Of a stretch of DNA of 64,000 bases, positions 24 to 62,028 are shown piece by piece (positions within the stretch are counted from its first letter, which is position 1; each line of letters opens with the position of its first letter). The position numbers were made by a program, and so were the translations under genes. This DNA is from a virus. The notes under the pieces are model-generated. The model was not told the DNA's origin. It saw only the letters and a list, made by a program, of their open reading frames with translations, and did not search any database. The stretch lies in UHGV virus genome UHGV-1366123. One strand, written 5' to 3'.

Positions 24-665
24 ATGTGCCAAGAGATTGTCTCAAAGTCGGAATACAACCACATTAAGATTCCGTTCATTGAAATCAAGAAGTTTGTCGA
101 ACTTCTGAAAATCTACACCGATGATGAGCAAGTGAACATTAATCTTTCTTGTGATGAAAAGGGAGAATCGCTTGTTGTGGTGAAACTTGAAGTGAAATCC
201 AAGAGAAAATCTTCAAGAATGCCAATGGCGGACATTTCTCTTGTTCCATATCTCCCGAAGGACATCTGGGAGAATCTGCTCCAAAGCACAGAACGCTTGT
301 CATTCTTTGGTCTTTCTCAGAATGACGTAACAGACGTGAAGAAGCTGATGAAGTACGCTTCTGAATCACAGGCATCGGCAAAGGTCAAGGAGATCTCGAA
401 GTTTAGAGTAAAGTTTGAAGATGATCAGACAACGATTATGTCATATGAAGATCGTTGGAACATTGACATTCCAACAGATGGTTCATTCACTGGGGATTTT
501 GTCTTCCCTGCTATTCTCTTCAAGCATCTCTCTTCAACGAACGTTTATGATTGCTCGTTTGTGAAGGCAATGGGCAGAGATACCAAGTTCCTAATCGTCT
601 CGAATGAAACATTAAGAACCACGTGCGTTGTTATCGCAGAAAAGTTCGATATCAACAAAAAATAA
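24..665 (+). CDS. hypothetical protein (reading frame is open back to the window start, so likely 5'-truncated by the window)
   Basis: 213-aa ORF in the track; the frame stays open upstream to position 3; followed by a hairpin terminator; no confident motif. Confidence 0.4.
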   Translation: MCQEIVSKSEYNHIKIPFIEIKKFVELLKIYTDDEQVNINLSCDEKGESLVVVKLEVKSKRKSSRMPMADISLVPYLPKDIWENLLQSTERLSFFGLSQNDVTDVKKLMKYASESQASAKVKEISKFRVKFEDDQTTIMSYEDRWNIDIPTDGSFTGDFVFPAILFKHLSSTNVYDCSFVKAMGRDTKFLIVSNETLRTTCVVIAEKFDINKK

Positions 666-744: not shown

Positions 745-1827
745 ATGCGATACATCCTCGACAAACTGATAATCTTTCTCACAATAATACGATACAAACT
801 TTGGCGATTTCCAATAAACGATGACGGAATAATCGATTCAGTTGTGCTTGATAACCACGAGACACTCACGATAAACGGTTGGAAGCCACTTTCTTCTGTA
901 CATCTAAAAGCTGTTCATGACATATTGGAGGTCGGTGCAGGTGAGTACAAGGTGAGTGGATCTGTCAATCATCTCGTCTATTCTTCCAAGAGTTCACTTG
1001 AAAGCTATCAACCTACGAAAGTCCGAGATCTCTCTTTAGGTGATATCTTAATGACTGTCGATGGTGCACGGAAAGTCTCTTCTCTCAAAAAGTCTCATCA
1101 ACAGATCGTGTTCGATTTATCTGTCGTGGATGAGACTTTGTCGTATTTCTCTGATGGCATACTTTCTCATAACTCTGTAATGAGTGGTATTTTCATTGCG
1201 TGGTACATCTTGACTAACTACGACAAGACCGTTCTTTGTACCAGTGTCAATGCAGACAAGGTCGATGAGCTTGTTGACAAGATTAACTCGATCTTTATGC
1301 ATCTTCCGTTCTATATGAAGCTCGGGATTGAAGTCGATAACGTATCCAAGAAGAAATGGGACAATGGTTGCAAACTGATCGGTGAAACTGCCACTGAGAA
1401 CTCTGGTGCAGGTGAAACCGCAGATCTTCTTTATGCTGACGAGTTTGCACTTATTGAACCAAACATCATCAACGAGTTCTTCCGTGTAGTTTATCCTACA
1501 CTTTCGGCAAGTAAGAAGTCGAAGATGATAATCACCAGCACGGCAAGAGGTATGAACAAGTTCTATCAGCTTTATCAAGATGCACTTGATGGTAAGAACA
1601 ACTTCAACCCAATAAGAATCGACTGGTGGGAAGTCGAAGGAAGGGATGAACAATGGAGACTTGACCAGATTGCAGACCTTGGTTCTGAAGCAGACTTTAA
1701 TCAAGAATATGGCAACTCGTTTATGAGTGGATCGACACTTCTTCTCTCCACTGCTGTCCTCAAGAAACTCGGGAAATACCAGAAGAAGTTCATAAATGGT
1801 GTGTTCTCGAATGACGGTTCTTTATGA
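745..1827 (+). CDS. terL: large terminase (TerL) middle fragment: a 143-aa intein C-fragment (Hint domain from block B to the terminal HN) fused to the ATPase core
   Basis: Hint block B (DNHETLTINGWKPLSSVHL) and blocks F/G (IVFDLSVVDETLSYFSDGILSHN followed by +1 Ser). After the intein the sequence is TerL ATPase-like: SVMSGIFIAWY (post-P-loop), Walker B LLYADEFALI, coupling motif IITSTARG. No Walker A is present in this ORF. Confidence 0.75.
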   Translation: MRYILDKLIIFLTIIRYKLWRFPINDDGIIDSVVLDNHETLTINGWKPLSSVHLKAVHDILEVGAGEYKVSGSVNHLVYSSKSSLESYQPTKVRDLSLGDILMTVDGARKVSSLKKSHQQIVFDLSVVDETLSYFSDGILSHNSVMSGIFIAWYILTNYDKTVLCTSVNADKVDELVDKINSIFMHLPFYMKLGIEVDNVSKKKWDNGCKLIGETATENSGAGETADLLYADEFALIEPNIINEFFRVVYPTLSASKKSKMIITSTARGMNKFYQLYQDALDGKNNFNPIRIDWWEVEGRDEQWRLDQIADLGSEADFNQEYGNSFMSGSTLLLSTAVLKKLGKYQKKFINGVFSNDGSL

Positions 1828-1879
1828 TGAAAATTGTCATTGTTTTTAATTTATAAAAATTAAAAGATAGACGGAAGGA

Positions 1880-2698
1880 ATGATAGAAGATGTTCTCCTT
1901 GAATACGACCAGTACTTTTTTATTCACCCCAACTTTGAACTTCAGTGGTTTAAAGATGAGCGCAATGCGTTCGTTCTATCAATAGACATTGCGGAAGGTA
2001 AAGGAGGTGACTACACGATTATCAACTTCTTCCAAGTCCTTCCAATGACACCTTTAGAAATTGAAGGTGTGAAGATCTTCAACGACGAAGAATCATTCTT
2101 CAAGTTGGTACAAGTCGCCATGTTTAGATCGAACATGGTAGAAACACCAGAATGTGCAAATTGGCTGTATCATTTCATAAACGGTTACATGATACAGGAC
2201 AACTTGAAGATCGTTATCGAGAACAACTTTGAAGGGAATTACTTCCGAAACACACTAATGAACATTTATGGAGAACAGAATGAACTCGACGAAGATGTCA
2301 TATTCTGCAAGTTTCTCTATAATGCTCGAGACGATAACGCCCGAACTTTCAGAGTTGGGATTTATCAAACAGAACCCCGAAAGCAACATTCTTGTAAGAT
2401 ATTCTCCGATCAGCTAAAGAACAATCAACTTGTTCTTACTGAGTTTATGACAATTCAAGAAGCTATGACCTTTGCACGATCAGAAAAATCGTCTTCTTAT
2501 CGTGCAAGCTCGGGACATGACGATTGTGTTATGACGTGTGTAAACGTTGTAAACATTCGAGATATCGAAGAATGGTCAGAACTCGTGGAAATTGTCAGTG
2601 AAAATTGTACAAACGAGTTTTGGAAACTGGTCGACAAGAAGCTCGGGAAACAAGCCGAAAGAAACGACGAACTCGACATATCAGACTATTACGATTAA
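1880..2698 (+). CDS. terL: large terminase nuclease domain (RNase H-like) as a separate ORF
   Basis: FVLSIDIAEGKGGDYTII (first catalytic Asp region) and SSGHDDCVMTCVNV (C-terminal hDDxv motif). Own RBS ggaaggaATG; an in-frame stop lies at 1868, just upstream. Confidence 0.65.
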   Translation: MIEDVLLEYDQYFFIHPNFELQWFKDERNAFVLSIDIAEGKGGDYTIINFFQVLPMTPLEIEGVKIFNDEESFFKLVQVAMFRSNMVETPECANWLYHFINGYMIQDNLKIVIENNFEGNYFRNTLMNIYGEQNELDEDVIFCKFLYNARDDNARTFRVGIYQTEPRKQHSCKIFSDQLKNNQLVLTEFMTIQEAMTFARSEKSSSYRASSGHDDCVMTCVNVVNIRDIEEWSELVEIVSENCTNEFWKLVDKKLGKQAERNDELDISDYYD

Positions 2699-2702
2699 AC
2701 AT

Positions 2703-3353
2703 ATGGACAAAACAACTACCCTCAATGTCTCATCGAAGGCGAAGATAGAAGATGAACAACAGGAGGAGGACATGCTCTTCATACCACAGTCAAAGACTGG
2801 TGGCAACATGTACAAAGAGAACTCTTGTGGTACTTCTTTCTCTGCTGATCAAGATTATCAAGATCAGTTCCTTGATGACATTTATAACCCCGATGAATAC
2901 AGAACAAGACAGAACTTCTGTGAAAAGTTCTATTCATCCTTGCAATCGATCATCAACAAGCATAAGCGATTCTCGTATATACGATCGTTCGATATGAATC
3001 ATGTGAGATGTGGCGACAATGTTTGTCACCTCGATAAAACATCACCATTTATGATAAACTTTGTACTTCATAATGGTGATGTTGTCGTATCTGACGATTC
3101 TTGTACTTTCTATCGTGAAGATAAGAGTCATCTGAAGCCATATGAAAAGCTGATGAACTCGTTCTTCAAGAATGATAGATCTGATCTTTATGATGTCGTC
3201 TATCGGAAAATGGTCGATTTCGATTTCGATCATAAGCTTTATTTTTGCATCTATTGCGAATACTTCAAGATAACAGACCATGAAGCGTTTTTTGATTCTC
3301 TTCCAAAGTTCCATCAAGACAACATAGAACGAATGTATAGACGGAGACGATAA
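2703..3353 (+). CDS. hypothetical protein
   Basis: ORF 2592-3353 trimmed to the first ATG after the upstream gene stop (MDKTTTLNV...). Confidence 0.35.
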   Translation: MDKTTTLNVSSKAKIEDEQQEEDMLFIPQSKTGGNMYKENSCGTSFSADQDYQDQFLDDIYNPDEYRTRQNFCEKFYSSLQSIINKHKRFSYIRSFDMNHVRCGDNVCHLDKTSPFMINFVLHNGDVVVSDDSCTFYREDKSHLKPYEKLMNSFFKNDRSDLYDVVYRKMVDFDFDHKLYFCIYCEYFKITDHEAFFDSLPKFHQDNIERMYRRRR

Positions 3354-3384: not shown

Positions 3385-4881
3385 ATGATCAATTGTAAAC
3401 AGATCAGAGACAAGATGTCGGTGTCTTATTTCGACGAAAACGGAAACATTGCGATATCTGACATAACAATAGACGATCGTGAAAAGTACGTATGGACAAA
3501 GACAACCGAAGATGATAAGTTTCGTGATAAGACTTACGTATCCCAAGACGGATTTCCAGTTAAAAAGGAACGTAAGTCCTATCTCGACAAATATCGCAAG
3601 ATCGAGTTCTTGCTGTCTCTGCCAGAACGTTTACAAGCGAAGATTTTCTCAAACAATCAACCACGTAAGTTCTTCTGGGATATAGAAACCGAGGTGTTTG
3701 ATGATTTCCCCGATGCAGGAAACCCTGTGGGACGAATCTTCACGCATCAGTATTGTGATGAGTTCGGGAATGGTACTGTCATGGGGATCAAGCCACTTTC
3801 ACAGGTGCAAATCGAATCTATCGAACAGAAGATCAACGACTATCTTTCACAAATCACCGATAAAACACTTCATCAGAGGTATAAGTTCCGTTACATTTAC
3901 TACCCCGATGAGTTCACGATGAATAAAGACTTCGTCGAGAATCACGCAACACGGATGCCGTGTATTTTCGGCTGGAACGTGCTGAAGTTCGATACAAGAT
4001 ATCTCGTCAACAGGTGTAAGAAGACGAACATTGATCCTACGATTTTGTCCCCGAAGAGGATGCTTTACTCGACGATTGCGAAAGATAAGTTTGATCATTC
4101 ATCGAAAATTGAAATCGAACTTCCTCTTCATCGACCAATCATCGACTACATGCAAATCTTTGAGTTCTTTGATAGATCGATTAAGCAGAAGTCATCAATG
4201 TCACTCGACTTTATCGCATCGGAGATCCTTGGTGTCAAGAAGATCCATCATTCCGAAACTCTGATGGAACTCTATGAGAAGGACTATGAACGTTACGTGC
4301 TTTATGGTATCATCGATACCTTCCTCGTGGCGTTGATCGATAAGAAGTGCAGAACATTCGAATCAATGAGCGTTCTTGCAAACCTTCTACGTGTCGAAGT
4401 CGCTCAATCGATGTTCGTCAGTGTTGGGATCGAAACACTCTTGTGTGACTACTATTACAAGCATTACAACAAAGTGTTTGTAAAGGATTATGACAAGCAG
4501 ATTCCCGAAGGTGAAACTTACAGTGCAGGATTCGTTCTACAACCAGGTATTGGTGTTTATGACGGCATCGTCATCTATGACTACGAATCACTGTTCCCTT
4601 CAATTATGCAGATGTTGAACGTTGGTGAAGATGTTTACCTCGGTCATACCGATGATCAAGGTAAAACTTACGTGGACAAACTCGGTGAAGAACACGAACT
4701 TGACGAATCGATGTGTTATTCATCAAGTGGTGCAGTTTACTCAAAAAACAGAGATTCCGCAATTCGAACGATGATTTCGAACATGTTCAACAAACGAGTA
4801 GAAGCAAAACACAAAGAAGCAGAAATCAAAGCAGATATTAATCACTTAAAGCAGATATTAAAAGATAACTTCGGACATTAA
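3385..4881 (+). CDS. family-B DNA polymerase, N-terminal fragment (3'-5' exonuclease domain plus polymerase motif A only)
   Basis: Exo I FFWDIETEV, Exo II CIFGWNVLKFDTRYL, Exo III YGIIDTFLV, pol motif A IVIYDYESLFPSIM. The ORF terminates about 100 aa later, before motifs B (KxxxNSxYG) and C (YGDTDS). Confidence 0.7.
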   Translation: MINCKQIRDKMSVSYFDENGNIAISDITIDDREKYVWTKTTEDDKFRDKTYVSQDGFPVKKERKSYLDKYRKIEFLLSLPERLQAKIFSNNQPRKFFWDIETEVFDDFPDAGNPVGRIFTHQYCDEFGNGTVMGIKPLSQVQIESIEQKINDYLSQITDKTLHQRYKFRYIYYPDEFTMNKDFVENHATRMPCIFGWNVLKFDTRYLVNRCKKTNIDPTILSPKRMLYSTIAKDKFDHSSKIEIELPLHRPIIDYMQIFEFFDRSIKQKSSMSLDFIASEILGVKKIHHSETLMELYEKDYERYVLYGIIDTFLVALIDKKCRTFESMSVLANLLRVEVAQSMFVSVGIETLLCDYYYKHYNKVFVKDYDKQIPEGETYSAGFVLQPGIGVYDGIVIYDYESLFPSIMQMLNVGEDVYLGHTDDQGKTYVDKLGEEHELDESMCYSSSGAVYSKNRDSAIRTMISNMFNKRVEAKHKEAEIKADINHLKQILKDNFGH

Positions 4882-7989: not shown

Positions 7990-8031
7990 TTGAAGCCCCC
8001 TTGGATGTGAAAATGTTCAAGGGGGCTTCTG
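7990..8031 (+). terminator. terminator hairpin followed by a CTGTATAAGA motif
   Basis: gaagccccctt (7991-8001) pairs with aagggggcttc (8019-8029). Confidence 0.45.
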
Positions 8032-8041
8032 TATAAGATGA

Positions 8042-12685: not shown

Positions 12686-12730
12686 GATGTGACGAAAGGT
12701 TCAAACCTTTCGTCACATCTGTATATAAAG
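12686..12730 (+). promoter_or_regulatory. terminator hairpin plus TGTATATAAAG motif
   Basis: gatgtgacgaaaggtt-caa-acctttcgtcacatc, then tgtatataaag. Confidence 0.45.
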
Positions 12731-12763
12731 AAAGAAAAACAATCTTAATAGAGAAGAGAGAAA

Positions 12764-13646: not shown

Positions 13647-13690
13647 GGTGGCGAAAGGTTTAAACCTTTCGCCACATCTGTATATAAAAG
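13647..13690 (+). promoter_or_regulatory. terminator hairpin plus CTGTATATAAAAG motif
   Basis: gtggcgaaaggttt / aaacctttcgccac stem, then tgtatataaaag. Confidence 0.45.
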
Positions 13691-13722
13691 AAACGAAAAA
13701 GAACAAAAACCTCCGTGAAATT

Positions 13723-14990: not shown

Positions 14991-15020
14991 TCGAGAGATT
15001 CATAATATCATAAAAATCAG

Positions 15021-15052
15021 AGAGGGCAAGGAAAACTATTTCCTTGCCCTCT
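15021..15052. terminator. bidirectional terminator hairpin between convergent genes
   Basis: agagggcaaggaaa-actatt-tccttgccctct. Confidence 0.45.
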
Positions 15053-15126
15053 CCTTGTGTTTGAGCCTATTTCTCCTTGCCGAACTACCTTCACAGTCGT
15101 CAGAGATCAAGGAAAGTACCTCTCCG

Positions 15127-24960: not shown

Positions 24961-25045
24961 GAAGACAAAAAAGAACGGTAGTTGGAAGATTGGTGATGAG
25001 CAATGCCTAAAAAACGTTGCTCATCATCTGTATTATAGAACTTAT

Positions 25046-26207: not shown

Positions 26208-26300
26208 CAGAGTATGACACGAACGGATATGACAGACATATGACAAAGATGACAGACGTATGACAAAGATGACAGACGTATGACAATTTTGTCATGACAA
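26204..26300. repeat. iteron-like array: nine ATGACA(R) copies including 2.5 copies of a 20-bp unit GTATGACAAAGATGACAGAC
   Basis: tatgacagagtatgacac...atatgacagacatatgacaaagatgacagacgtatgacaaagatgacagacgtatgacaattttgtcatgacaa. Confidence 0.5.
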
Positions 26301-35159: not shown

Positions 35160-35332
35160 GTCTCCGAACTCAAGGAAGGTACTTTCCTTGCACTCTGATG
35201 GTATTGGTGGTACTTACATAGCATCGAAGGCAAGAAAGCCCAAGGAAAAGGCAAAGAGAAAGCCCAACAACTTCTATCAAGTTGTTGGGCTTTCTCGTTA
35301 TTAATCAATGATTATTGGTTGATGGATGGTTT

Positions 35333-40935: not shown

Positions 40936-41027
40936 GAGGTACTTTCCTTGAGCTTGGAGGTACTTGGAGGTACTTTCACCCCACCGATAATTCTCGAATG
41001 CAAGGAAAGTACCTCTCTTTAATTCGA
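40936..41027. repeat. palindromic ~90-bp element copy
   Basis: agaggtactttccttgagc ... gcaaggaaagtacctctc, flanked by cctcttctgatta / tttaattcgac. Confidence 0.5.
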
Positions 41028-41335: not shown

Positions 41336-41423
41336 AGACGTAGTGAGAGGTTTCGCTCCTCTGAATATCTTCATCAAGAAGCACTACGTTTGATAAAAAG
41401 GTGGCGAGTTGTCCATACTCTTC

Positions 41424-41496
41424 TCAGTCTGGTAGGATTCGAACCTACATCATCTAAGAACCACCTTATAGGAATTTCCGATTATTCTACAGACTG
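41424..41496 (-). tRNA. tRNA-like gene with an aberrant anticodon arm (4-bp stem, 6-nt loop)
   Basis: Perfect acceptor CAGTCTG/CAGACTG, D-arm GAAT-AATCGGAA-ATTC, T-arm GTAGG-TTCGAAT-CCTAC, but the anticodon region TATAAGGTGGTTCTTAG does not fold canonically. Confidence 0.4.
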
Positions 41497-41862
41497 AACA
41501 ACAAACGATAATGAAGATTCAAAATGCTGAATATCTGCAAATCGGAAACTATGATTGATTCATCTTTTAGACAGCTATGGACAATACCGAATGGGGTATC
41601 AAACCAGTAACTTGAAGATTTTTATAGATTGCTGTAAGTCCATAATCTAAAAGACGTTTTTTCTATCTTTTTCGTCGAAATCTTTACTGCAGACGTTATC
41701 TATGAGCCAATTATGAAGATTCTGTTTGCTGTGTGTCTACAGATCCCGACATTAAGAATTCTTTAAAAGAACGCTTTGTGAATGATGACTTCCCAGTGGA
41801 CTACGTAGTTTTAGGAGCAATTGCATAGTAATTTGCTGTGAATCCAATAGATCATCATTTTG

Positions 41863-42892: not shown

Positions 42893-43846
42893 TCATTTAG
42901 TCGTAGTTTGTTTCTTCTTGATGATCATTCTAAAATAAGTCTGCTCGCCATTCACAGACAAATATTTCCCGTCGTTTCCCCTTCTGGATGTCACAATCTC
43001 AAATTGTTGAGGATTGAATTTATACAAGAATGTTATCGGAACCCCCATGCAACCATTGTAATCTCGTGGTATATCCTTGACCCTATCGACATTTATACCA
43101 TCATAATTGTCGTATTTGGGATATTCATGTTCGTGTCCATAGTAGTTTTTTGTAAGCGGAATATCTTCATGTCGCATAGAGTGGTTCAAATTCGTAAACC
43201 ACAGACAATTATTGGTGGGCGTGATCATATTACCAGATTCGTCCATCCATGTTTTTTTCATGTAGGGTTCATAATGGGCTGGTATGATAAACCCAGAAAA
43301 TTCGTTCCCACGATTTACACCAAGCCATGCCTTACCATCTTGAACGGATTTGAAGATTTCTTTGTTGGTGATAGAATTGATATTCCCAATAATGAGAAAG
43401 AGCTTATCGTATCTGATCAGTTGTGTCATATATTCACGGAACAACGAAAATGGTGGATTTGTAACAACTATGTCAGATTGTTCCAGCAAATCGATACTTT
43501 CTTGACTACGAAAGTCGCCATCACCATTGAAGTAAACAACATCAGCTGTCTTTGGATCTGTATCGACGAGTTCTGTCCCTGTGTATTCAAAGAAAAAACC
43601 ACGACTGTTTTCCTTATAACAAGATGCAATCACCTTCCGAAGTCCCAATTCTTTGAAATTGGAAACGAAGTATTTGAAAAAGTTACTCGTCAGAGGATCA
43701 TCACAATTGCAATACACAACTTTCCCTTTAAAATGGCTTTCATAATGTCGCAATTCTCTTTCGATATCAATAAGTTGCGTATAGAACTCGTCGTTCTTTT
43801 GCTTTCTAGCATTACGAAGTAACTTGCTGGTTGTTGCCCTTGCCAT
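42893..43846 (-). CDS. DNA N6-adenine (amino) methyltransferase
   Basis: DIVVTNPPF catalytic motif IV (NPPF), DEFYTQ N-terminal motif, CNCDDP. Confidence 0.55.
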   Translation of the reverse strand: MARATTSKLLRNARKQKNDEFYTQLIDIERELRHYESHFKGKVVYCNCDDPLTSNFFKYFVSNFKELGLRKVIASCYKENSRGFFFEYTGTELVDTDPKTADVVYFNGDGDFRSQESIDLLEQSDIVVTNPPFSLFREYMTQLIRYDKLFLIIGNINSITNKEIFKSVQDGKAWLGVNRGNEFSGFIIPAHYEPYMKKTWMDESGNMITPTNNCLWFTNLNHSMRHEDIPLTKNYYGHEHEYPKYDNYDGINVDRVKDIPRDYNGCMGVPITFLYKFNPQQFEIVTSRRGNDGKYLSVNGEQTYFRMIIKKKQTTTK

Positions 43847-43849
43847 ATT

Positions 43850-44300
43850 TCCGTCTTTTAATATAAATCTTCAGAATAGAGAATCGTCTTATCTTTTACA
43901 TCTTCTATTTGATCAGCTTCTTTAGCTATCTTACAAACTTCATACCTATCAACAAATATCACTTTAGAAGTGTAGAAGCCTTATCGTATGTGAAAAATCT
44001 GCGTTTTATCCAGTTCTCACTTCTTGTTTCAACCTGCCATTACTTTTTAGGAACACGAGGTTCGGTCATCCATAAGAGGGCAGTCCGCAAGCGTAAATTC
44101 GGTGCTACGAACACCTACTCGATTTTTTATATGTTAGACAGTTTGAAGTTTTCTTTGTCCTTCAATGAGAATGTTCTTCGAAGCGTTTATATCTCTGTCG
44201 TGATATTCACCACATTCGGGACAAGTCCAAAACCTATCACCGAGTTTCAAGTCTTTCTTCTTGTAACCACAACATAAACAAGTCTTTGAACTTGGATAGA
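43850..44300 (-). ncRNA. putative omega-RNA/right-end region of the TnpB element (boundaries unknown)
   Basis: Inference only: omega-RNAs of IS200/IS605 TnpB overlap the 3' end of tnpB and extend into the downstream non-coding DNA; a 287-bp non-coding stretch follows the tnpB stop. Confidence 0.25.
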
Positions 44301-45276
44301 ACCTATTGATAAGAACAACTCGCTTATCATTCATAAGAGCCTTATATTGCAATATCGACTTGAACCGATAAAATCCAGACTCTTGGATAGCATTCGCAAG
44401 ATAACGATTTCCAAGCATCCCTTTAATATTCAAGTCTTCCATGAACACCACGTCGTATGATTTGAGGATCTCGTTCACAACTGAGTGGATGTAGTTCTCT
44501 TTCTTGTTCGTTATATTCGCAATCACTTTTGCAAGTCTGATTCTCTGTTTGTTCCTATTGTTTGAACCTTTGACCTTTCTGGATAGTTGACGATGAAGTC
44601 TTGTGATCTTCTTTTCCTCCTTCTTGAAGAAGTGTTTGTTTTCAAACACAAATCCATCAGAGGTTATGACGAAATCTTTCACACCAAGATCAATACCGAC
44701 TTGCTTGTTGGTCTTTTCAAACTTTACAAATTCTGCTTCGGGAATGTCGATAAGGATTGATAAGAAGAAATTCCCACTCTTGGTTTTCGAGAGAGTTGCA
44801 CTTCTTATGTTATCTTTGTACTTCTGTAAGCGTTTGTGATACAAGTCAGAACAACGGAATCTGAGTTTTTGAAGAGAAGTGATTAGTGTTATATGTTTCG
44901 TTTCGAAAGTGTTCCTCTTTGAAATAGCATTACGAGGAAACAATGCTGATTGTTTGTCTTTCTTTGATTTAAACTTTGGAAAGCCTTTATGATGATTGAA
45001 GAAGTTTTGATAAGCACCGACCATCTGTTTGATTGCTTGGTTCATCACCTTTGTGTTCTGTTCTCTCAACCAAGCATATTGTTCATCTTTCAACAATGAT
45101 CCGTGGAAATATTTCGATAGATCGCTTTCGCTTAGGTTTGTCTTGTCCGTTTCATAAGCCTTTTGTTTTCTATCGAGCATGTGATTATAGACAAAACGAT
45201 AAGCACCAAGAACCTTGTTGAGTTCTTGTTCCTGCGCTTTGTTTGGATATAACCTTATTTTAATCGCTCTAAACAT
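44134..45276 (-). CDS. tnpB: TnpB (IS200/IS605-family OrfB, RNA-guided RuvC-like endonuclease)
   Basis: N-terminus MFRAIKIRLYPNKAQEQELNKVLGAYRFVYN; C-terminal zinc finger CLCCGYKKKDLKLGDRFWTCPECGEYHDRDINASKNI. Confidence 0.8.
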   Translation of the reverse strand: MFRAIKIRLYPNKAQEQELNKVLGAYRFVYNHMLDRKQKAYETDKTNLSESDLSKYFHGSLLKDEQYAWLREQNTKVMNQAIKQMVGAYQNFFNHHKGFPKFKSKKDKQSALFPRNAISKRNTFETKHITLITSLQKLRFRCSDLYHKRLQKYKDNIRSATLSKTKSGNFFLSILIDIPEAEFVKFEKTNKQVGIDLGVKDFVITSDGFVFENKHFFKKEEKKITRLHRQLSRKVKGSNNRNKQRIRLAKVIANITNKKENYIHSVVNEILKSYDVVFMEDLNIKGMLGNRYLANAIQESGFYRFKSILQYKALMNDKRVVLINRFYPSSKTCLCCGYKKKDLKLGDRFWTCPECGEYHDRDINASKNILIEGQRKLQTV

Positions 45277-45764: not shown

Positions 45765-45831
45765 TGCTTCGTGAAGGATTCGAACCTTCATCAATTCCGT
45801 CGAATCGCTCTGGCCATTGAGCTAACGAAGC
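45765..45831 (-). tRNA. truncated tRNA-like gene; the anticodon arm is replaced by a short tetraloop hairpin
   Basis: Acceptor GCTTCGT/ACGAAGC, D-arm GCTC-AATGGCCA-GAGC, T-arm GAAGG-TTCGAAT-CCTTC, but only 16 nt (GATTC-GACG-GAATT) lie between the D-arm and T-arm. Confidence 0.4.
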
Positions 45832-46033
45832 CCTCATAGATTCCCAGTTTTAACGGAAACTGTGGCGGACTATGAACCCCTGCGTGAAACCGCACTTGAA
45901 CTTCAACCAAGATCTGTACGTACTTTAACCCAAGTGATAGGTTTTGAACCCTAATTGAAGCAGAACTATTCCCATTCTGAGAGGGGACGTTATCAACTTA
46001 AAAATTGGTGAAACGTCCTAAAGTCAACATCGG

Positions 46034-46106
46034 TACGCCATGAAGGATTTGAACCTTCGACCGCCAAGGTATAAGCTTGGAACTCTAACCACTGAGTTAA
46101 TGGCGC
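46034..46106 (-). tRNA. tRNA-Ile(TAT) candidate
   Basis: Acceptor GCGCCAT/ATGGCGT; D-arm ACTC-AGTGGTTA-GAGT; anticodon arm CCAAG-CTTATAC-CTTGG; T-arm GAAGG-TTCAAAT-CCTTC. Confidence 0.6.
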
Positions 46107-46687: not shown

Positions 46688-46709
46688 CGTGTCTCTTGTT
46701 CTTTTTTTG

Positions 46710-46782
46710 TGATTCCAGTGGGGCTTGAACCCACAACCCCTGCATTAAAAGTGCAGTGCTCTACCTGTTGAGCTATGAAATC
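46710..46782 (-). tRNA. tRNA-Lys(TTT)
   Basis: Acceptor GATTTCA/TGGAATC; D-arm GCTC-AACAGGTA-GAGC; anticodon arm CTGCA-CTTTTAA-TGCAG; T-arm GTGGG-TTCAAGC-CCCAC. Confidence 0.65.
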
Positions 46783-46922
46783 TAAACCATTGTTCTAAGC
46801 GAATCTCTTCAAGTGAATGATTAATCGCTTCGGTATTCTTATTGTGAATGTCAAGATATTAGTTTCAATGATAGTTACCAACAGCTATTGGAGATTATCA
46901 ACAAATATTAGCAGTTCCCATG

Positions 46923-46998
46923 CCAAGAAGACCCCCCCCCGATGAATTGATTCTTTTTTATCAAAAAGAATCAATTCATCGGGGGGGGGTCTTCTTGG
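46923..46998. repeat. 76-bp perfect palindrome (36-bp arms, 4-nt loop) with C9/G9 tracts
   Basis: ccaagaagacccccccccgatgaattgattcttttt-tatc-aaaaagaatcaattcatcgggggggggtcttcttgg. Confidence 0.7.
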
Positions 46999-47016
46999 AG
47001 ATTATCGTTTATGGGT

Positions 47017-47067
47017 GAAGATTGAAGATTGAAGATTGAAGATTGAAGATTGAAGATTGAAGATTGG
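47017..47067. repeat. tandem heptamer repeat (GAAGATT) x7
   Basis: gaagattgaagattgaagattgaagattgaagattgaagattgg. Confidence 0.7.
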
Positions 47068-47120
47068 CTTCCGCATATTGAAGAAATGTGTTAAAGTGTA
47101 TTATCAACTGATACGCTTTA

Positions 47121-47203
47121 AAGGAAGGTATTTTCCTTGCGCTCTGAGAGGTTCAAGAATATGAAAATAGCGGAGAATAGATCAGAGCGCAAGGAAAGTA
47201 CCA
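47121..47203. repeat. palindromic ~85-bp element, copy A
   Basis: aaggaaggtattttccttgcgctctga ... tcagagcgcaaggaaagtacc, with inner core gaatatgaaaatagcggaga. Confidence 0.6.
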
Positions 47204-47411
47204 AGGAAAGCCAAGGAGACATATCCTTTGGAATGATGGGTTTCTGTCGGGAGACAATGACTATTTCCAAGGATTATGAGAAGACTATGACAATAATGGA
47301 GGACAATGGAAGATTATCAATGACTTGAAAGACAATGGTTGGAAAATGACTGATTTTTAGAGGATTATCAGAGGACTATCTTTTGGAAAATGGTTGGTGA
47401 TTATCGAATTA

Positions 47412-47493
47412 AAGGAAGGTACTTTCCTTGTCCTCGAAGCTATTCGAGAATATGAAAATAGCGGAGACCATACTCGAGTTCAAGGAAAGTACC
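47412..47493. repeat. palindromic ~85-bp element, copy B
   Basis: aaggaaggtactttccttgtcctcgaag ... ctcgagttcaaggaaagtacc; same inner core. Confidence 0.6.
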
Positions 47494-47559
47494 AAGGAAA
47501 TCCAAGGAGACATATTTTCGAGGATTATGGTCTCTGTGGCTAATGGGAGGAATATCTTG

Positions 47560-47960
47560 GAAAGAGAATATCAGTTTAAAGGTGTTAAAAGGTGTTAATC
47601 TGTTCGGGGATTTAGTGAAGGTCTTTTTTAAAGTTTTACGCATGCGTTTTTTAAAGTTTTACGTGCGTGCGCTTTTTTTTGGAGTTTCACGCATGCGTTT
47701 TTTAAAGTTTCGCAACACGCACCTGGTACTTTTGGTTTAAACTGGAGATTTAAAAACATGCGCACGACATGTTTCTGCGCTCAATGTATGGTTTGGGGCA
47801 GCCTGGCTTGGCACTATCGTGCCAAGGCTGACCCCAAACCAGTTGTAAATACTTTGTATTTACGATAAAACTGGAAAAAAATAACGCATGCGTATACGGG
47901 TATACACGGGAATTCGCGCGTTTTTTCAAAGTTTCGTGTATACGCACGGTTTGTCGGCAA
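47560..47960. repeat. GC-rich island with a triplicated ACGCATGCGTTTTTTAAAGTTTT motif and multiple palindromes
   Basis: Three copies of (c)acgcatgcgttttttaaagttt; long hairpin ggtttggggcagcctggcttggcac-tatc-gtgccaaggctgaccccaaacc; gtatacgggtatacacg / cgtgtatacgcacg. Confidence 0.55.
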
Positions 47961-48229
47961 ATTCCGAGATTAGTCTGATTATCTTTCAATTTCAGTCTTT
48001 CAATTTTCAACTTTCCATTCAAAATCAGTTAACAATTCTTAACAATTCTCTGTTCTTGGAATGATTATCTTTCAATTTCAATCTTTCAATCTCTCTTTGA
48101 ATAATCATCCATTGTCTTTCCAAGAATCATAGTCTTTCCAAGAATCATAAATATCTCGGGAATCATCAATGGTCTCTTTCAATTGTTCTGGTCTGTTCTG
48201 GGATTAAAAAGACTAATTTTGATTTTCAA

Positions 48230-49340
48230 CTTTCCCTTTCCACAATAAAACCATTTAGTGATTGTCTTTTGTCTTCAAAACGATTATCATTAAAGGGGCG
48301 GAAATCTATGATTCAGACAAAAGTCATCTTCTATTAACAAATCTTTAGAGAATTCTTTCAATCTTTAGAGAAATTTTTCAAAGAGACTATGACTTTTTCT
48401 ATTGTCTTTGATAATCTTTTCACGATCCTCTATTGTCTTGGTGATTCTTTGATGATCAGTCATTGTCTTTGATTATGGTTGATTGTCTTCCATAGTCTTC
48501 TGATAATCACTGACAATAGTCATTGTCTTCCGACAATCATACCACCATTCAACAGAATACCTCTTCTGATTACAGGAAGGTACTTTCCTTGCGCTCTGAT
48601 CCATTTTCCGCTATTTCTATCCCACCGAATGTCTTCGAGGACAAGGAAAGTACCTTCCTTTAATTCAACCATTCTCAACCATTTTCTGGTAGATCATCTT
48701 CATAATCATTCAAAGAACCAGTTGTGAAGACGGTCATCATTGTCTTTCCATAATCCTTTGATGGTCAGTCATTGTCTTTGATTGTTTTCCATAGTCAGTC
48801 ATTGTCTTTGATTATGGTCGATTGTCTTTCCATAGTCTTCTCATAATCCTTCGAAATAGTCATTGTCTCCCGACAGAAACCCATAATCCTCGAGAATATG
48901 TCTCCTGATTACAGGAAGGTACTTTCCTTGAACTCGAGTATGGTCTCCGCTATTTTCATATTCTTGAATATCTCAGAGCGCAAGGAAAGTACCTCGTCTT
49001 AATTAATGAATCAGAACTATTGTCTCTTCATAGTCTTCTGATAATACTTCAATAATCGTCCATTGTCTTTCAATAATCAGCCATTGTCTTCCGATTATGG
49101 TCGATTGTCTTTGATGATTGTTGATTGTCTTTGATGATTGTTGATTGTCTTCCATAATCAGTCATTATCTTGGATAGTCTTCCATAATCCTTCGAAATGG
49201 TCTATTGTCTTCGGATGATGACCCATAGTCCCCGAGAATACCTCTCCTTGGCTCTCCTTGGTACTTTCCTTGCATTCTGATACACTTTCCGCTATTTTCA
49301 TATTCTCGGGCTATTTCGAGGACAAGGAAAGTACCTCTCT
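48230..49340. repeat. three tandem ~340-bp direct repeats rich in CATTGTCTT(T/C) sub-repeats; each ends in a palindromic element copy (C 48573-48660, D 48912-48996, E 49251-49338)
   Basis: Repeated gtcattgtctttgattatggtcgattgtctt(c/t)ccata(g/a)tc... blocks; each terminates with (c)ctcttctgattacaggaaggtactttccttg...caaggaaagtacct...ttaatt. Confidence 0.55.
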
Positions 49341-49479
49341 TTAATTCACAACTCTGTGACCATTTCTCCAGCCAATTTTCTGATTATTGCTGGAAGGTCA
49401 ATGTTTGGATACAGATGTGGGGAGAAGAAATCAAACTTCTCCCCACATTCTTCTTTTTGATTTGTAGGTTTCTTTTCTT

Positions 49480-51285
49480 TTAGTGAATGGTTCTTCTTTT
49501 AAGGAAACTTTCGTTGATTTCTCTGAAAAGTGATCTTGATTTCTTGTCCAAGTTCAATGGATCACGACAATCGTCGATTATGAAGAACTTCGAAGGTGTC
49601 TTCACAAGGGATTTCGACATGATGTAAGAATGATAAGTTTCATCAACTTCGTGATTTGCGACACGGATCTGTCGAATTGCGTATTTCCCAGTGATAAGTG
49701 AAACCTGTCCATCAATCTCCAAAACAGATGATCTTTCTCTATAAAGAAGTTTCATGACCTTCTCCAATGGTTCTGTATGATTAAGCAAACTCTTGAGAAT
49801 TGTTGAATCGTTATCATTTACAGAGTAAACGTTGAACCTCATGAATCCGTGCTCATTGTTGATCCCTACGACAACACAATAGAACTTTCTCTTCTCAAGA
49901 TCAACGTTCAAAGAGAATGAATATTCACCACTGACGACTATGTTCTTTGTCGATATAGAAATTGAGAATGGTTTCCCATCAACTTCGATCACCTTCGAAA
50001 GACTCTCGTCGAGAAGTTCTATCCAGAACATGAATGACAATCCCTGCTTTGAGGAAACTCTCTGTTGATACTTGATAGCTGTTTCTCCAGTTTTCCCTAC
50101 TGACATGTCGTAGATGAACTTCCCAAGTGAATTTCCATTGTTATCATAGTCACATCTTTCAGATTTTACAAGACTTGGATCGAACTCTGAGTGCAAGAGA
50201 TCATCGATACCTACGTTGTCCAGATTTTGTTTCGTGTTCTGTATGTCTTCCATTTCGTCCAGCTGTTCATCTGAATAGTCGTCGATTTTCACGTTTTCTT
50301 TTAAAAACTGGAGATCATCGTCTCTTTTGTCGACATTCGTCATGTCCTCATACTTCTTGATTGTACAGACATAGAAGCTTCCATGTTCACCTATCCCATG
50401 ATTCAGATAAACGTCTTGGATCATGTACATTCTGTTAATCTCTGAGAAGTAAAGGTAGTCCATTCTTCTTGGTTCTTCTCGGACACCAAACACTTCTTCG
50501 AAATAGGTCTTCTCAAAGTAAACTTCCAGTTTTTCAAACTCGATCCCCCATTGTGAAAATTCGTGCCGAGGTTCTGGGATCTGGTTGTCTTTCAAGACAA
50601 CTTTGAGAATCTTCATCGCCACAACATTGTGCAACGAATATTCTCTTAAGAATTCATCTTTGGACTTCAAATCTGGATTTGTGTGCCAATACTTAACACT
50701 CACCGCTGAATGTTGCTGGATGTAATAGTTCATGTCGATCTCCAGCTTCTGAAGACCTATCGACATTCGAGCATAATCTTGAAGAGAATCCACACCAGAC
50801 AGCAGGAACGATTCTCCTTGATCTATAAAAGTCGTCTGTGGAGATTTGTACTTAATAAGTGGCTTCTCGATCTCTATTTTTGATCCTAAGAAGTTCTCCA
50901 CGAGGACATATCTGACTTTGATGTATTTTCCGTGGATTCCAACAAGAGAATCTCTGTTATACGCTTTCCACGTATCCCAATTTTTCCCATCGGAAGATGT
51001 TGTATAATCTCGAAGAAGCAAGGAAGATGAGTTTTCACCTTCCACTTTCTCCATGACATATTCGATCTCTCTTGCGGATTTCTCTATATCGAATATAGCA
51101 ACAGAACCTACGGTCTCCAGTTTTTTCATACTTTTTAAAGAAACGTTTTGTTGTTTATCTTCTATAAGACGTTGCAGATGGTGCATAAAGCCGAAAGATT
51201 TACAATAAACAACGATTAGGTAAAAATGAAGATTCTCATAATTGGTGACGTTCACGAAAGCGACTTCTGGATAGACCACGTTCAA
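49480..51285 (-). CDS. hypothetical large protein; the true start is probably internal (Met at 51186 or 51129)
   Basis: 601-aa minus-strand ORF whose first 60 nt overlap the convergent-start + strand gene at 51226; internal Mets MHHLQ and MKKLETV. Confidence 0.4.
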   Translation of the reverse strand: MNVVYPEVAFVNVTNYENLHFYLIVVYCKSFGFMHHLQRLIEDKQQNVSLKSMKKLETVGSVAIFDIEKSAREIEYVMEKVEGENSSSLLLRDYTTSSDGKNWDTWKAYNRDSLVGIHGKYIKVRYVLVENFLGSKIEIEKPLIKYKSPQTTFIDQGESFLLSGVDSLQDYARMSIGLQKLEIDMNYYIQQHSAVSVKYWHTNPDLKSKDEFLREYSLHNVVAMKILKVVLKDNQIPEPRHEFSQWGIEFEKLEVYFEKTYFEEVFGVREEPRRMDYLYFSEINRMYMIQDVYLNHGIGEHGSFYVCTIKKYEDMTNVDKRDDDLQFLKENVKIDDYSDEQLDEMEDIQNTKQNLDNVGIDDLLHSEFDPSLVKSERCDYDNNGNSLGKFIYDMSVGKTGETAIKYQQRVSSKQGLSFMFWIELLDESLSKVIEVDGKPFSISISTKNIVVSGEYSFSLNVDLEKRKFYCVVVGINNEHGFMRFNVYSVNDNDSTILKSLLNHTEPLEKVMKLLYRERSSVLEIDGQVSLITGKYAIRQIRVANHEVDETYHSYIMSKSLVKTPSKFFIIDDCRDPLNLDKKSRSLFREINESFLKRRTIH

Positions 51286-53327: not shown

Positions 53328-53384
53328 CATTTATCAGATTGGGCTGTCGGGGAGAAATCTCGACAGCCCAATCTGTATAAGAAC
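53328..53384 (+). terminator. terminator hairpin plus CTGTATAAGAAC motif
   Basis: gattgggctgtcgg...ccgacagcccaatc. Confidence 0.45.
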
Positions 53385-53406
53385 AAAAAACCAATCACTC
53401 TTAACA

Positions 53407-61944: not shown

Positions 61945-62028
61945 CGGAAGGCACTTTCCTTGCGCTCTGAAGATTTCGGTGTTGTTCTCATAGCTCTTTG
62001 ATATACAGAGCGCAAGGAAAGCACCTCG
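61945..62028. repeat. palindromic ~85-bp element, copy H
   Basis: cggaaggcactttccttgcgctctga ... cagagcgcaaggaaagcacc. Confidence 0.55.

Follow-up and report, generated by a model that had tools for sequence, protein, structure and literature searches.

The 64,000-nt stretch of virus genome UHGV-1366123 that we analysed (the window) contains, at 46783-49479, a real, conserved and ordered non-coding locus, which in a crude gene call is by far its largest gene-free stretch. Judged from its sequence, the locus would be a control region at the DNA level in an uncultivated T4-like myovirus that carries two copies per genome of ~150 kb, and its likeliest function is that of a replication origin. 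The more specific assignment, that it is one of two redundant origins in the style of T4, is made tentatively and with somewhat less than even confidence. Replication origins are known experimentally for few phages and for essentially no uncultivated ones, and the locus offers a concrete candidate in at least five related genomes.

A gene-free locus conserved among relatives

The region lies between a tRNA-Lys gene (46709-46782, minus strand) and the stop codon of a 601-aa gene (49480, minus strand), and the longest open reading frame (ORF) between these flanks encodes 90 aa. The crude gene call reports two gaps, 46688-47439 and 47644-49479, which are separated by one spurious ORF of 67 aa; the next-largest gap of the window measures 908 bp and is occupied by tRNAs. 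An initial annotation of the window had seen no credible ORF over 2.7 kb, and closer analysis agreed with it. None of ten small ORFs in the region had a match in Pfam, and the PHROG search returned a single weak match (E = 0.049). The 90-aa ORF, which runs across the core of the locus, was rejected as a gene, since stops interrupt it in relatives and in the paralogous locus.

The gene content of the phage makes it a T4-like myovirus. The window encodes a major head protein, a prohead protease and a baseplate wedge protein, together with Dda-like and DnaB-like helicases, a UvsX-like recombinase, a gp32-like single-stranded DNA-binding protein and an SbcCD-like (gp46/47-type) nuclease; a GroEL gene is also present. 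Among cultured phages, Flavobacterium phage MaF61 is closest to it, with a major capsid protein that is 39.5% identical; further protein matches point to Bacteroidota phages and to huge phages that are uncultured.

No DNA similarity of the region to GenBank phages was found by megablast or blastn. Close relatives are present in IMG/VR and metagenome collections, five of them as contigs of 145-151 kb. In three (L119, L121 and L123), the orthologous locus lies between the same two genes, is 2.50-2.65 kb long and has the same layout of two repeat units, a central island and three further units. As a baseline, the 601-aa gene was compared with that of L123, which gave an identity of 0.77 at four-fold degenerate sites and of 0.88 over nucleotides. 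Segments of the locus were compared with all three relatives, and identity was 0.96-0.99 in a core of ~250 bp (47713-47960), 0.89-0.96 in the repeats to its left (47561-47712), 0.90-0.93 in an AT-rich segment to its right (47961-48330), and 0.79-0.90, with many indels, in the outer arms. Because identity in the central ~770 bp (47561-48330) is 0.89-0.99 against 0.77 at the neighbouring four-fold sites, this part is under strong constraint, and the arms are under much less.

A second locus with the same core is found elsewhere in the genomes of most relatives. It consists of the core, one or two modules of T5AAAGTTT and alternating purine-pyrimidine (RY) sequence, and a right arm of three units, and the two loci are ~68 and ~81 kb apart on a circular map of ~150 kb. 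The second locus sits between divergent genes. On one side it lies directly upstream of the start codon of a gene whose 400-aa product matches the C-terminal half of family-B DNA polymerases (PolB); on the other side are a 185-aa protein of unknown function and a guanylate kinase. Of the five large genomes, four contain two copies of an invariant core block, CTGCGCNCAATGTATGGTTTG, and the fifth, which has no island at the primary locus, contains a single copy.

The two loci also account for the places at which assemblies in this phage group are interrupted. The ends of contig 3300009964_000001 overlap exactly over 119 bp inside the primary locus, so that it closes on itself, and the contig of another relative is broken inside the second one. 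In our reading, these are effects of the repeats on assembly and not physical ends.

The second locus marks, in addition, the point at which PolB is split. The two halves are encoded more than 20 kb apart, the N-terminal half at 3385-4881 (plus strand) of the window and the C-terminal half at 1829-3031 (minus strand) of contig L128; on a profile of 856 positions they cover 12-496 and 484-841, respectively. MaF61 has one intact PolB gene of 995 aa, with no large gap beside it.

Phased arrays, palindromes and hairpins

The arms are built of CATWRTC and its variants (7-mer NATWRTC). The left arm (47101-47560, minus strand) comprises two units with a period of 291 bp, each containing one 76-bp palindromic element (47127-47202 and 47418-47493), while the right arm (48331-49352, plus strand) comprises three tandem units of ~340 bp, spaced by 339 and 342 bp, each of which ends in such an element (48579-48654, 48918-48993 and 49260-49335), so that the region holds five. 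The initial annotation had described the left-hand pair as an element of ~85 bp and had also recognised the three tandem units and their CATTGTCTT sub-repeats, all of which we recovered. CATWRTCYT occurs 34 times in the window (6.6 expected), and 22 of these matches fall within the region. All five matches in the left arm are on the minus strand and all 17 to the right of the core on the plus strand; the arrays thus mirror each other about the core, both pointing either away from it or toward it.

In the right arm of the window, these sites recur with a best period of 10.2 bp and a vector strength of 0.66, compared with a mean of 0.095 and a maximum of 0.30 under the null. When the right arms of four orthologues and three paralogous loci are included, best periods are 10.2-10.5 bp and vector strengths 0.42-0.83. 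The period arises from mixed spacings of 10/11, 20/21 and 30/31 bp, the pattern that sites on a single face of B-DNA would give, and it persists in every right arm despite turnover of the arrays. Phasing of this kind is meaningful for duplex DNA and not for RNA.

At the left boundary of the locus lies the 76-bp perfect palindrome of the initial annotation (46923-46998). Its two 36-nt arms, which include C9/G9 tracts, are fully complementary and are separated by the 4-nt centre TATC. In five genomes, it has five different versions, 62-76 bp long, which differ from each other by many substitutions and indels. Each version has 0 mismatches and 0 G-T pairs, its indels are mirrored, and its centre is either TATC or the complement GATA. 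Something keeps the arms identical. This palindrome occurs at the primary locus only.

Orthologues and paralogues align across the ~250 bp of the core with long invariant blocks. Here we find hairpin 0 (47754-47774), in whose place paralogues carry a different hairpin, the invariant block CTGCGCTCAATGTATGGTTTG (47775-47795), hairpin 1 (47790-47840), hairpin 2 (47845-47863) and two RY palindromes (47884-47898 and 47935-47948). Covariation in hairpins 1 and 2 was scored over 16 distinct sequences and 26 pairs (416 cells). All 416 cells are Watson-Crick; in five pairs both partners have changed, and in no pair has only one. The observed score was reached by none of 500 shuffles, and slid registers all collapsed. 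A further compensated change, from G-C to T-A, is seen in L130. There is no G-U (G-T) pair in the 416 hairpin cells or in the ~165 pairs of the perfect palindromes. Alignment folding gave the same consensus fold for both strands of the core at almost equal energy, and it thus could not be used to choose a transcribed strand.

The core is flanked on its left (47561-47712, plus strand) by TTTTTTAAAGTTT repeats (T6AAAGTTT) that alternate with the RY palindromes ACGCATGCGT and ACGTGCGTGCGC, motifs that are unique to this spot within the window. RY-alternating runs of 11 nt or more number nine in the window, and six of them fall within the 400-bp island formed by these repeats and the core. To the right, the AT-rich segment (GC 0.29-0.33) contains direct repeats (a 29-mer x2, an 18-mer x2.2 and a 10-mer x2) and is a candidate DNA-unwinding element. 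Among all 200-bp windows of the 64 kb, 48203-48402 ranks first and 47970-48169 third for lowest nearest-neighbour stability, which expresses a thermodynamic propensity alone and not unwinding itself.

Two details of the island had been described differently at first. It was called GC-rich, but its GC content (0.40-0.43) is that of the window average (0.40), and a contrast exists only against the right-hand flanks (0.29-0.33). A triplicated motif was also reported. ACGCATGCGT is indeed present three times, but the full 23-mer has only one exact copy and one copy with a single mismatch, and it is TTTTTTAAAGTTT that is triplicated.

A function at the DNA level is indicated by the phasing with the helix, by the perfect palindromes with their mirrored indels and by the lack of G-T pairs. 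A role of the duplex is further favoured by the low-stability stretches beside the core, by the RY runs of the island and by the unbiased mismatches in the 76-bp elements described below.

The locus as a replication origin

Of the functions proposed in the initial annotation, the origin is the one that we retain as the best reading. It is now supported by the size of the gene-free stretch and its lack of a conserved ORF, the conserved position and architecture of the locus, the identity of its centre far above that of neighbouring four-fold sites, the helical phasing, the flip of the arrays between strands, the least stable DNA of the window lying beside the core, and the second copy upstream of the PolB C-half. 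We also counted in its favour the exclusively Watson-Crick exchanges in the core hairpins, the mirrored changes in the boundary palindrome, the stem mismatches of the 76-bp elements, which favour neither strand, and the set of T4-type replication and recombination genes. T4 itself has several redundant origins.

If the locus is an origin, a protein of phage or host would bind along one side of the helix, at the phased 7-mers, and wrap the DNA. The stress of wrapping could be taken up by the cruciform- and Z-prone sequences of the core and by the AT-rich segment, which would open. The phage helicase might then be loaded at the opened segment, or a transcript started in the core might stay annealed as a primer, as at T4 oriF and oriG. 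Later replication would be recombination-dependent, and the UvsX-like and gp46/47-like genes for this are present. Such an origin would probably have a new, composite architecture. Two pieces of the locus are unusual in themselves, namely a phage-borne family of extragenic palindromes of fixed size that behaves like bacterial repetitive extragenic palindromic (REP) sequences and bacterial interspersed mosaic elements (BIMEs), and a long palindrome held perfect through mirrored changes.

Several observations weigh against an origin. No initiator gene is recognisable beside either locus, the neighbours being tRNA-Lys, a NADAR-domain gene and the 601-aa protein at the one, and the PolB C-half, the 185-aa protein and guanylate kinase at the other. 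The 601-aa protein was considered as an initiator and rejected, as it belongs to no family and has no solved relative; a distant relative has it annotated as a neck protein. DnaA boxes (TTATCCACA, at most one mismatch) are not enriched, with 21 in the window against 18.2 expected and two in the region. No promoter could be assigned to the core with any certainty: a scan for sigma-70-type promoters found nothing inside 47320-48039, and scans of the core found neither a Bacteroidota-type -33/-7 pair nor the late-type TAAATAACGAAA motif. The second locus has a single arm and lacks the 370-bp AT-rich segment. At the primary locus of relative 3300006251_000001, only 1.5 kb with four palindromic elements and no island is found. 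The initial annotation had named absence or variation in relatives as evidence against its proposal, and this genome does lack the central island at the locus, but it keeps the paralogous island elsewhere. The arm arrays turn over by slippage, with runs of 19 bp x6, 10 bp x7 and 6 bp (TTTGTC) x5 in different relatives; satellites typically behave in this way, more so than fixed initiator sites, and the 10-bp period could in part be the unit length of a tandem duplication. Finally, GC skew across the region changes only as the repeat composition dictates. Our confidence in the origin is limited because of the missing initiator and promoter, the incomplete second locus, the unstable arrays and the relative without an island.

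A few promoter-like motifs deserve mention. TAAATA within hairpin 2 was rejected as a promoter, as it is not retained in paralogues. We infer that the invariant TGTATGG (47785-47791) and the TGTATAC motifs may resemble the phage's own 'TGTATA' class.

A dispersed 76-bp element and the possibility of a REP/BIME-like array

Constant in size, the 76-bp element is imperfectly palindromic and has 13-nt arms (GGTACTTTCCTTG and CAAGGAAAGTACC) around a 50-nt spacer. It had been described as a feature of the locus, but it is not confined to it: the element is found in intergenic DNA throughout the genomes of one phage clade and nowhere else. A search of 185,579 species genomes of bacteria and archaea found no instance of the two-arm pattern, and we therefore rejected the element as a host REP sequence. 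The window contains four dispersed copies, two of them degenerate, at four of its six convergent gene junctions. All four are on the plus strand. The copy at 40938-41013 lies 26 nt past the stop of the head-closure gene and that at 61950-62025 lies 15 nt past a plus-strand gene, and a bidirectional terminator comes next in both cases; the degenerate copies lie between the helicase gene and a bidirectional terminator (near 35178, spanning 35168-35250) and between convergent genes (15020-15125). Dispersed copies thus start just past the stop of the plus-strand gene, and the terminator follows in 3/3 cases in which the surroundings were read. Relatives show the same placement and orientation relative to the preceding gene, with one exception. 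Both arms of the locus, read outward from the core, show the orientation that the element has after genes.

The inner stems of the copies are chimeric and thus carry a trace of recombination. A first count of G-U versus A-C mismatches in the stems, 37 against 13, seemed to favour one strand as the transcribed one, but this was gone once orthologous copies were de-replicated (22 A-C versus 20 G-T, no strand bias). The loop contains a near-invariant ATGAAA on the opposite strand. The 16-codon frame found there (MKIAE..KESTFL, 57/58 copies) was not accepted as a gene, as it has no codon periodicity and longer versions are not conserved. The element is probably a separate, reused module outside the origin proper. 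By analogy to REP/BIME, it may serve as a site for topoisomerase or an architectural protein, or as a structure at transcript ends.

These properties suggest a different explanation for the whole locus, in which the 76-bp palindromes and the short repeats are a phage-specific REP-like family that has accumulated, through recombination and slippage, at two tolerant places, and only the core works, as a promoter and leader for the minus-strand PolB C-half at the second locus and for the tRNA cluster at this one. Dispersal of the element through the genome, its confinement to one clade and its position at convergent gene ends, where enterobacterial REP/BIME elements also sit, are in line with this, as are the recombined inner stems. 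Copy numbers and arrays vary among close relatives, and in one of them the island has been lost together with a unit. The PolB split coincides exactly with the second locus, and the nearest cultured relative, whose gene is intact, has no such locus. The arms, moreover, are rich in indels and only slightly more conserved than four-fold sites (0.79-0.87 versus 0.77). However, a head of fixed size makes it unlikely that ~4 kb of DNA without a use would be kept in at least five diverged genomes with the same order of units. Phasing has been retained in every arm despite the turnover of the arrays, and conservation of the 370-bp AT-rich segment (0.90-0.93) would be superfluous for a promoter. There is also no transposase of the Y1 type (REP-associated tyrosine transposase, RAYT) among the window genes scanned, nor any copy of the element in the 185,579 species genomes. 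We keep such a REP/BIME-like array as a rival reading but consider it unlikely. A link between the palindromes and a nearby TnpB element was rejected, since the TnpB flanks share no motifs with them.

A combination of both ideas is also conceivable. The phage would have a REP/BIME-like system of its own, in which the 76-bp palindrome marks the ends of convergent transcription and, when massed with phased 7-mers, builds two large nucleoprotein hubs at which replication begins and supercoiling is organised; the mirrored indels would point to hairpin- or cruciform-templated copying during replication or repair. To our knowledge, such an origin architecture has not been described for any phage, and we regard this elaborate scheme as improbable.

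Transcripts, packaging sites and genome ends

An RNA-level function, which the initial annotation had offered as an alternative, would require outward promoters in the core and two long untranslated transcripts, one of ~1.4 kb running rightward and one of ~0.8 kb running leftward. Two or three copies of the hairpin found at mRNA 3' ends would be present in each and might act as a decoy for the binding partner of that hairpin or as a precursor of small hairpin RNAs. Transcription through the arms is suggested mainly by the outward orientation of the elements and by the hairpin that closes the right arm (49414-49449). The dispersed elements nearly always lie 15-110 nt past a stop codon in this same orientation with a terminator next. 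The closing hairpin has a good T-run on the plus strand without a plus-strand gene before it; it faces the stop of the minus-strand 601-aa gene and is kept in all relatives. Folding of the region is far more stable than that of shuffles (z ~ -6.5), the hairpins covary, and the tRNA cluster adjoins the locus. On the other side, no Rfam family was found (Rfam 15): only tRNAs reach gathering scores, and the hits with E up to 5 are chance hairpin matches to microRNA models. Folding and covariation are equal on both strands, a G-U pair is found neither in the hairpin cells nor in the palindrome pairs, and the stem mismatches of the elements are without strand bias. Helical phasing of the short motif at 10.2-10.3 bp has no meaning in RNA, and the core scans identified no promoter. 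The proposal thus gained nothing from family, strand or pairing analysis; we keep it as a rival but think it rather unlikely. A related idea, in which CAUUGUCUU would act as an anti-start-codon sponge by pairing with AAGACAAUG at gene starts, was dropped because the motif is not found at gene starts in the window.

Much less can be said for the packaging site that had also been proposed, at which terminase would recognise the repeats or the perfect palindrome would mark a physical genome end. Two of the five ~150-kb contigs of relatives do break within a locus and a third ends 1.2 kb away, and the locus is repeat-rich, as are many pac and cos regions. However, repeats suffice to explain assembly breaks, and 3300009964_000001 closes across the locus like a circular assembly. 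The head, terminase and recombination genes are of the T4 type, and packaging in T4-type phages is by the headful and uses no unique site. The presence of two loci per genome and the distance of 45 kb to the terminase gene (745-1827) also speak against a packaging site, which is very improbable.

We give hardly any credence to a hairpin telomere or snap-back structure, in which the perfect palindrome would be a resolution or self-priming site like protelomerase targets or the junctions of hairpin-ended genomes: the palindrome is perfect despite mirrored changes in five genomes and has its centre in both orientations, as flip-flop centres of hairpin ends do, but recombination between the arms of any inverted repeat flips the centre too, no protelomerase-like gene is present among the window genes scanned, and the palindrome, which is restricted to the primary locus, lies inside circularly closing contigs with different DNA on either side.

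Comparison with known systems

Among known origins, those of T4 come closest to the origin that we propose. Like oriF and oriG (promoter plus unwinding element) and oriE (iterons), the locus belongs to a T4-like phage, is redundant, has a conserved block beside easily melted DNA and contains short direct repeats. There is, however, no sequence similarity, and a middle-type promoter with an R-loop is only conjectural here. The locus is also ten times larger, with arrays of opposite polarity that contain 30-40 phased sites and with large palindromes that are absent from T4 origins. Iteron origins such as lambda ori and plasmid oriV/oriR share helix-phased direct repeats next to an AT-rich region with 13-mer repeats and GC-rich elements. 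They differ in having an adjoining initiator gene and enriched DnaA boxes, and the sites here are short (7-9 nt), far more numerous than usual and unstable in number. Eukaryotic viral origins, such as oriL of herpes simplex virus (HSV) and the SV40 core origin, resemble the locus in their inverted initiator-type sites around an AT-rich centre and their long perfect palindromes. Their hosts and replication proteins are unrelated, and the perfect palindrome is here at the edge of the locus and not at its centre.

The injection stop signal region of T5 lies in the long terminal repeat and has eight ordered DnaA boxes (Davison, bioRxiv 10.1101/866236). Our locus looks similar, but it does not lie in a terminal repeat, shows no more DnaA boxes than chance would give and belongs to a T4-like phage, and the contigs close as circles.

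Like REP, BIME and REPIN sequences, the 76-bp element is an imperfect, extragenic palindrome that is dispersed after genes at convergent junctions and is also clustered. In contrast to these, it is carried by a phage, in perhaps 10-20 copies per genome, and is tied to a phased short motif inside two loci. A RAYT is not among the window genes scanned, only TnpB (44134-45276), which has no related ends. PeSL promoter-terminator cassettes are repeated regulatory stem-loops between genes of T4-type phages that have been linked with genome plasticity (PMC2839356, PMC4122927). Small motifs of a hairpin followed by TCTGTATA after many genes of the present phage are similar to these, while the 76-bp element is much larger, lies ahead of a separate terminator and has no assignable promoter. 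Protelomerase targets of the telRL type are matched by the perfect palindrome, but the window genes scanned include no protelomerase gene, and the contigs close as circles.

Further features of the locus and of the window

Between the perfect palindrome and the left arm lies a microsatellite, which had been reported as (GAAGATT)x7 and which Tandem Repeats Finder (TRF) places at 47016-47066 (plus strand) as 7.3 copies of TGAAGAT with 100% matches. Because its copy number varies, from 0 to ~3 in relatives compared with ~7 in the window, the heptamer array itself is probably not functional. On the other side of the palindrome, toward tRNA-Lys, a conserved sigma-70-like TTGACA with a downstream AT-rich hexamer (46841-46868, minus strand) is probably the promoter of the tRNA-Lys/NADAR unit.

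Two motifs that recur outside the locus may be part of the expression signals of the phage. TAAATAACGAAA, or its variant TAAATAAGCAAA, is found 20-40 nt upstream of many structural-gene starts (9858, 14547, 17862, 27856, 29865, 37163, 37203, 52680 and 63924) and is probably a late promoter akin to T4 TATAAATA. A GC-rich hairpin running into (A)TCTGTATA(T/A)AAGAAA follows many plus-strand genes (700-735, 7990-8035, 12690-12735, 13650-13695, 24995-25040, 53340-53385 and others). It is a composite terminator/promoter-like motif, reminiscent of PeSL cassettes. The intergenic stretch 26208-26300 contains about nine short repeats of the ATGACA type (..ATATGACAGACATATGACAAAGATGACAGACGTATGACAAAG..) and is another candidate array of protein-binding sites.

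The tRNA cluster of this lytic-type phage harbours the TnpB gene (IS605 OrfB/Cas12f-like; 44134-45276, minus strand), which is 92-95% identical in relative 3300045988_122716. The 287-bp stretch downstream of it (43847-44133) could be a guide-RNA site. The tRNAs themselves show some peculiarities: ARAGORN reports one with an odd two-base anticodon at 41423-41497, Rfam detects one at 45765-45831 (56 bits) that ARAGORN missed, and a tRNA-Ile(tat) at 46032-46106 occupies the place of tRNA-Met(cat) in relatives.

Hexamer palindromes are skewed in the window (AAATTT 3 versus 46 expected, ACCGGT 0 versus 9, GAATTC 37 versus 20), and an EcoRI-type adenine methyltransferase is encoded at 42893-43846 (minus strand), which together suggest restriction avoidance combined with self-methylation. 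Only the C-terminal part of the 360-aa ORF at 745-1827 (plus strand) matches the large terminase, and of the profile the match takes in only the later part. Because of this partial match and of a separate 213-aa ORF ahead of it (24-665, plus strand), the terminase gene may be split too.

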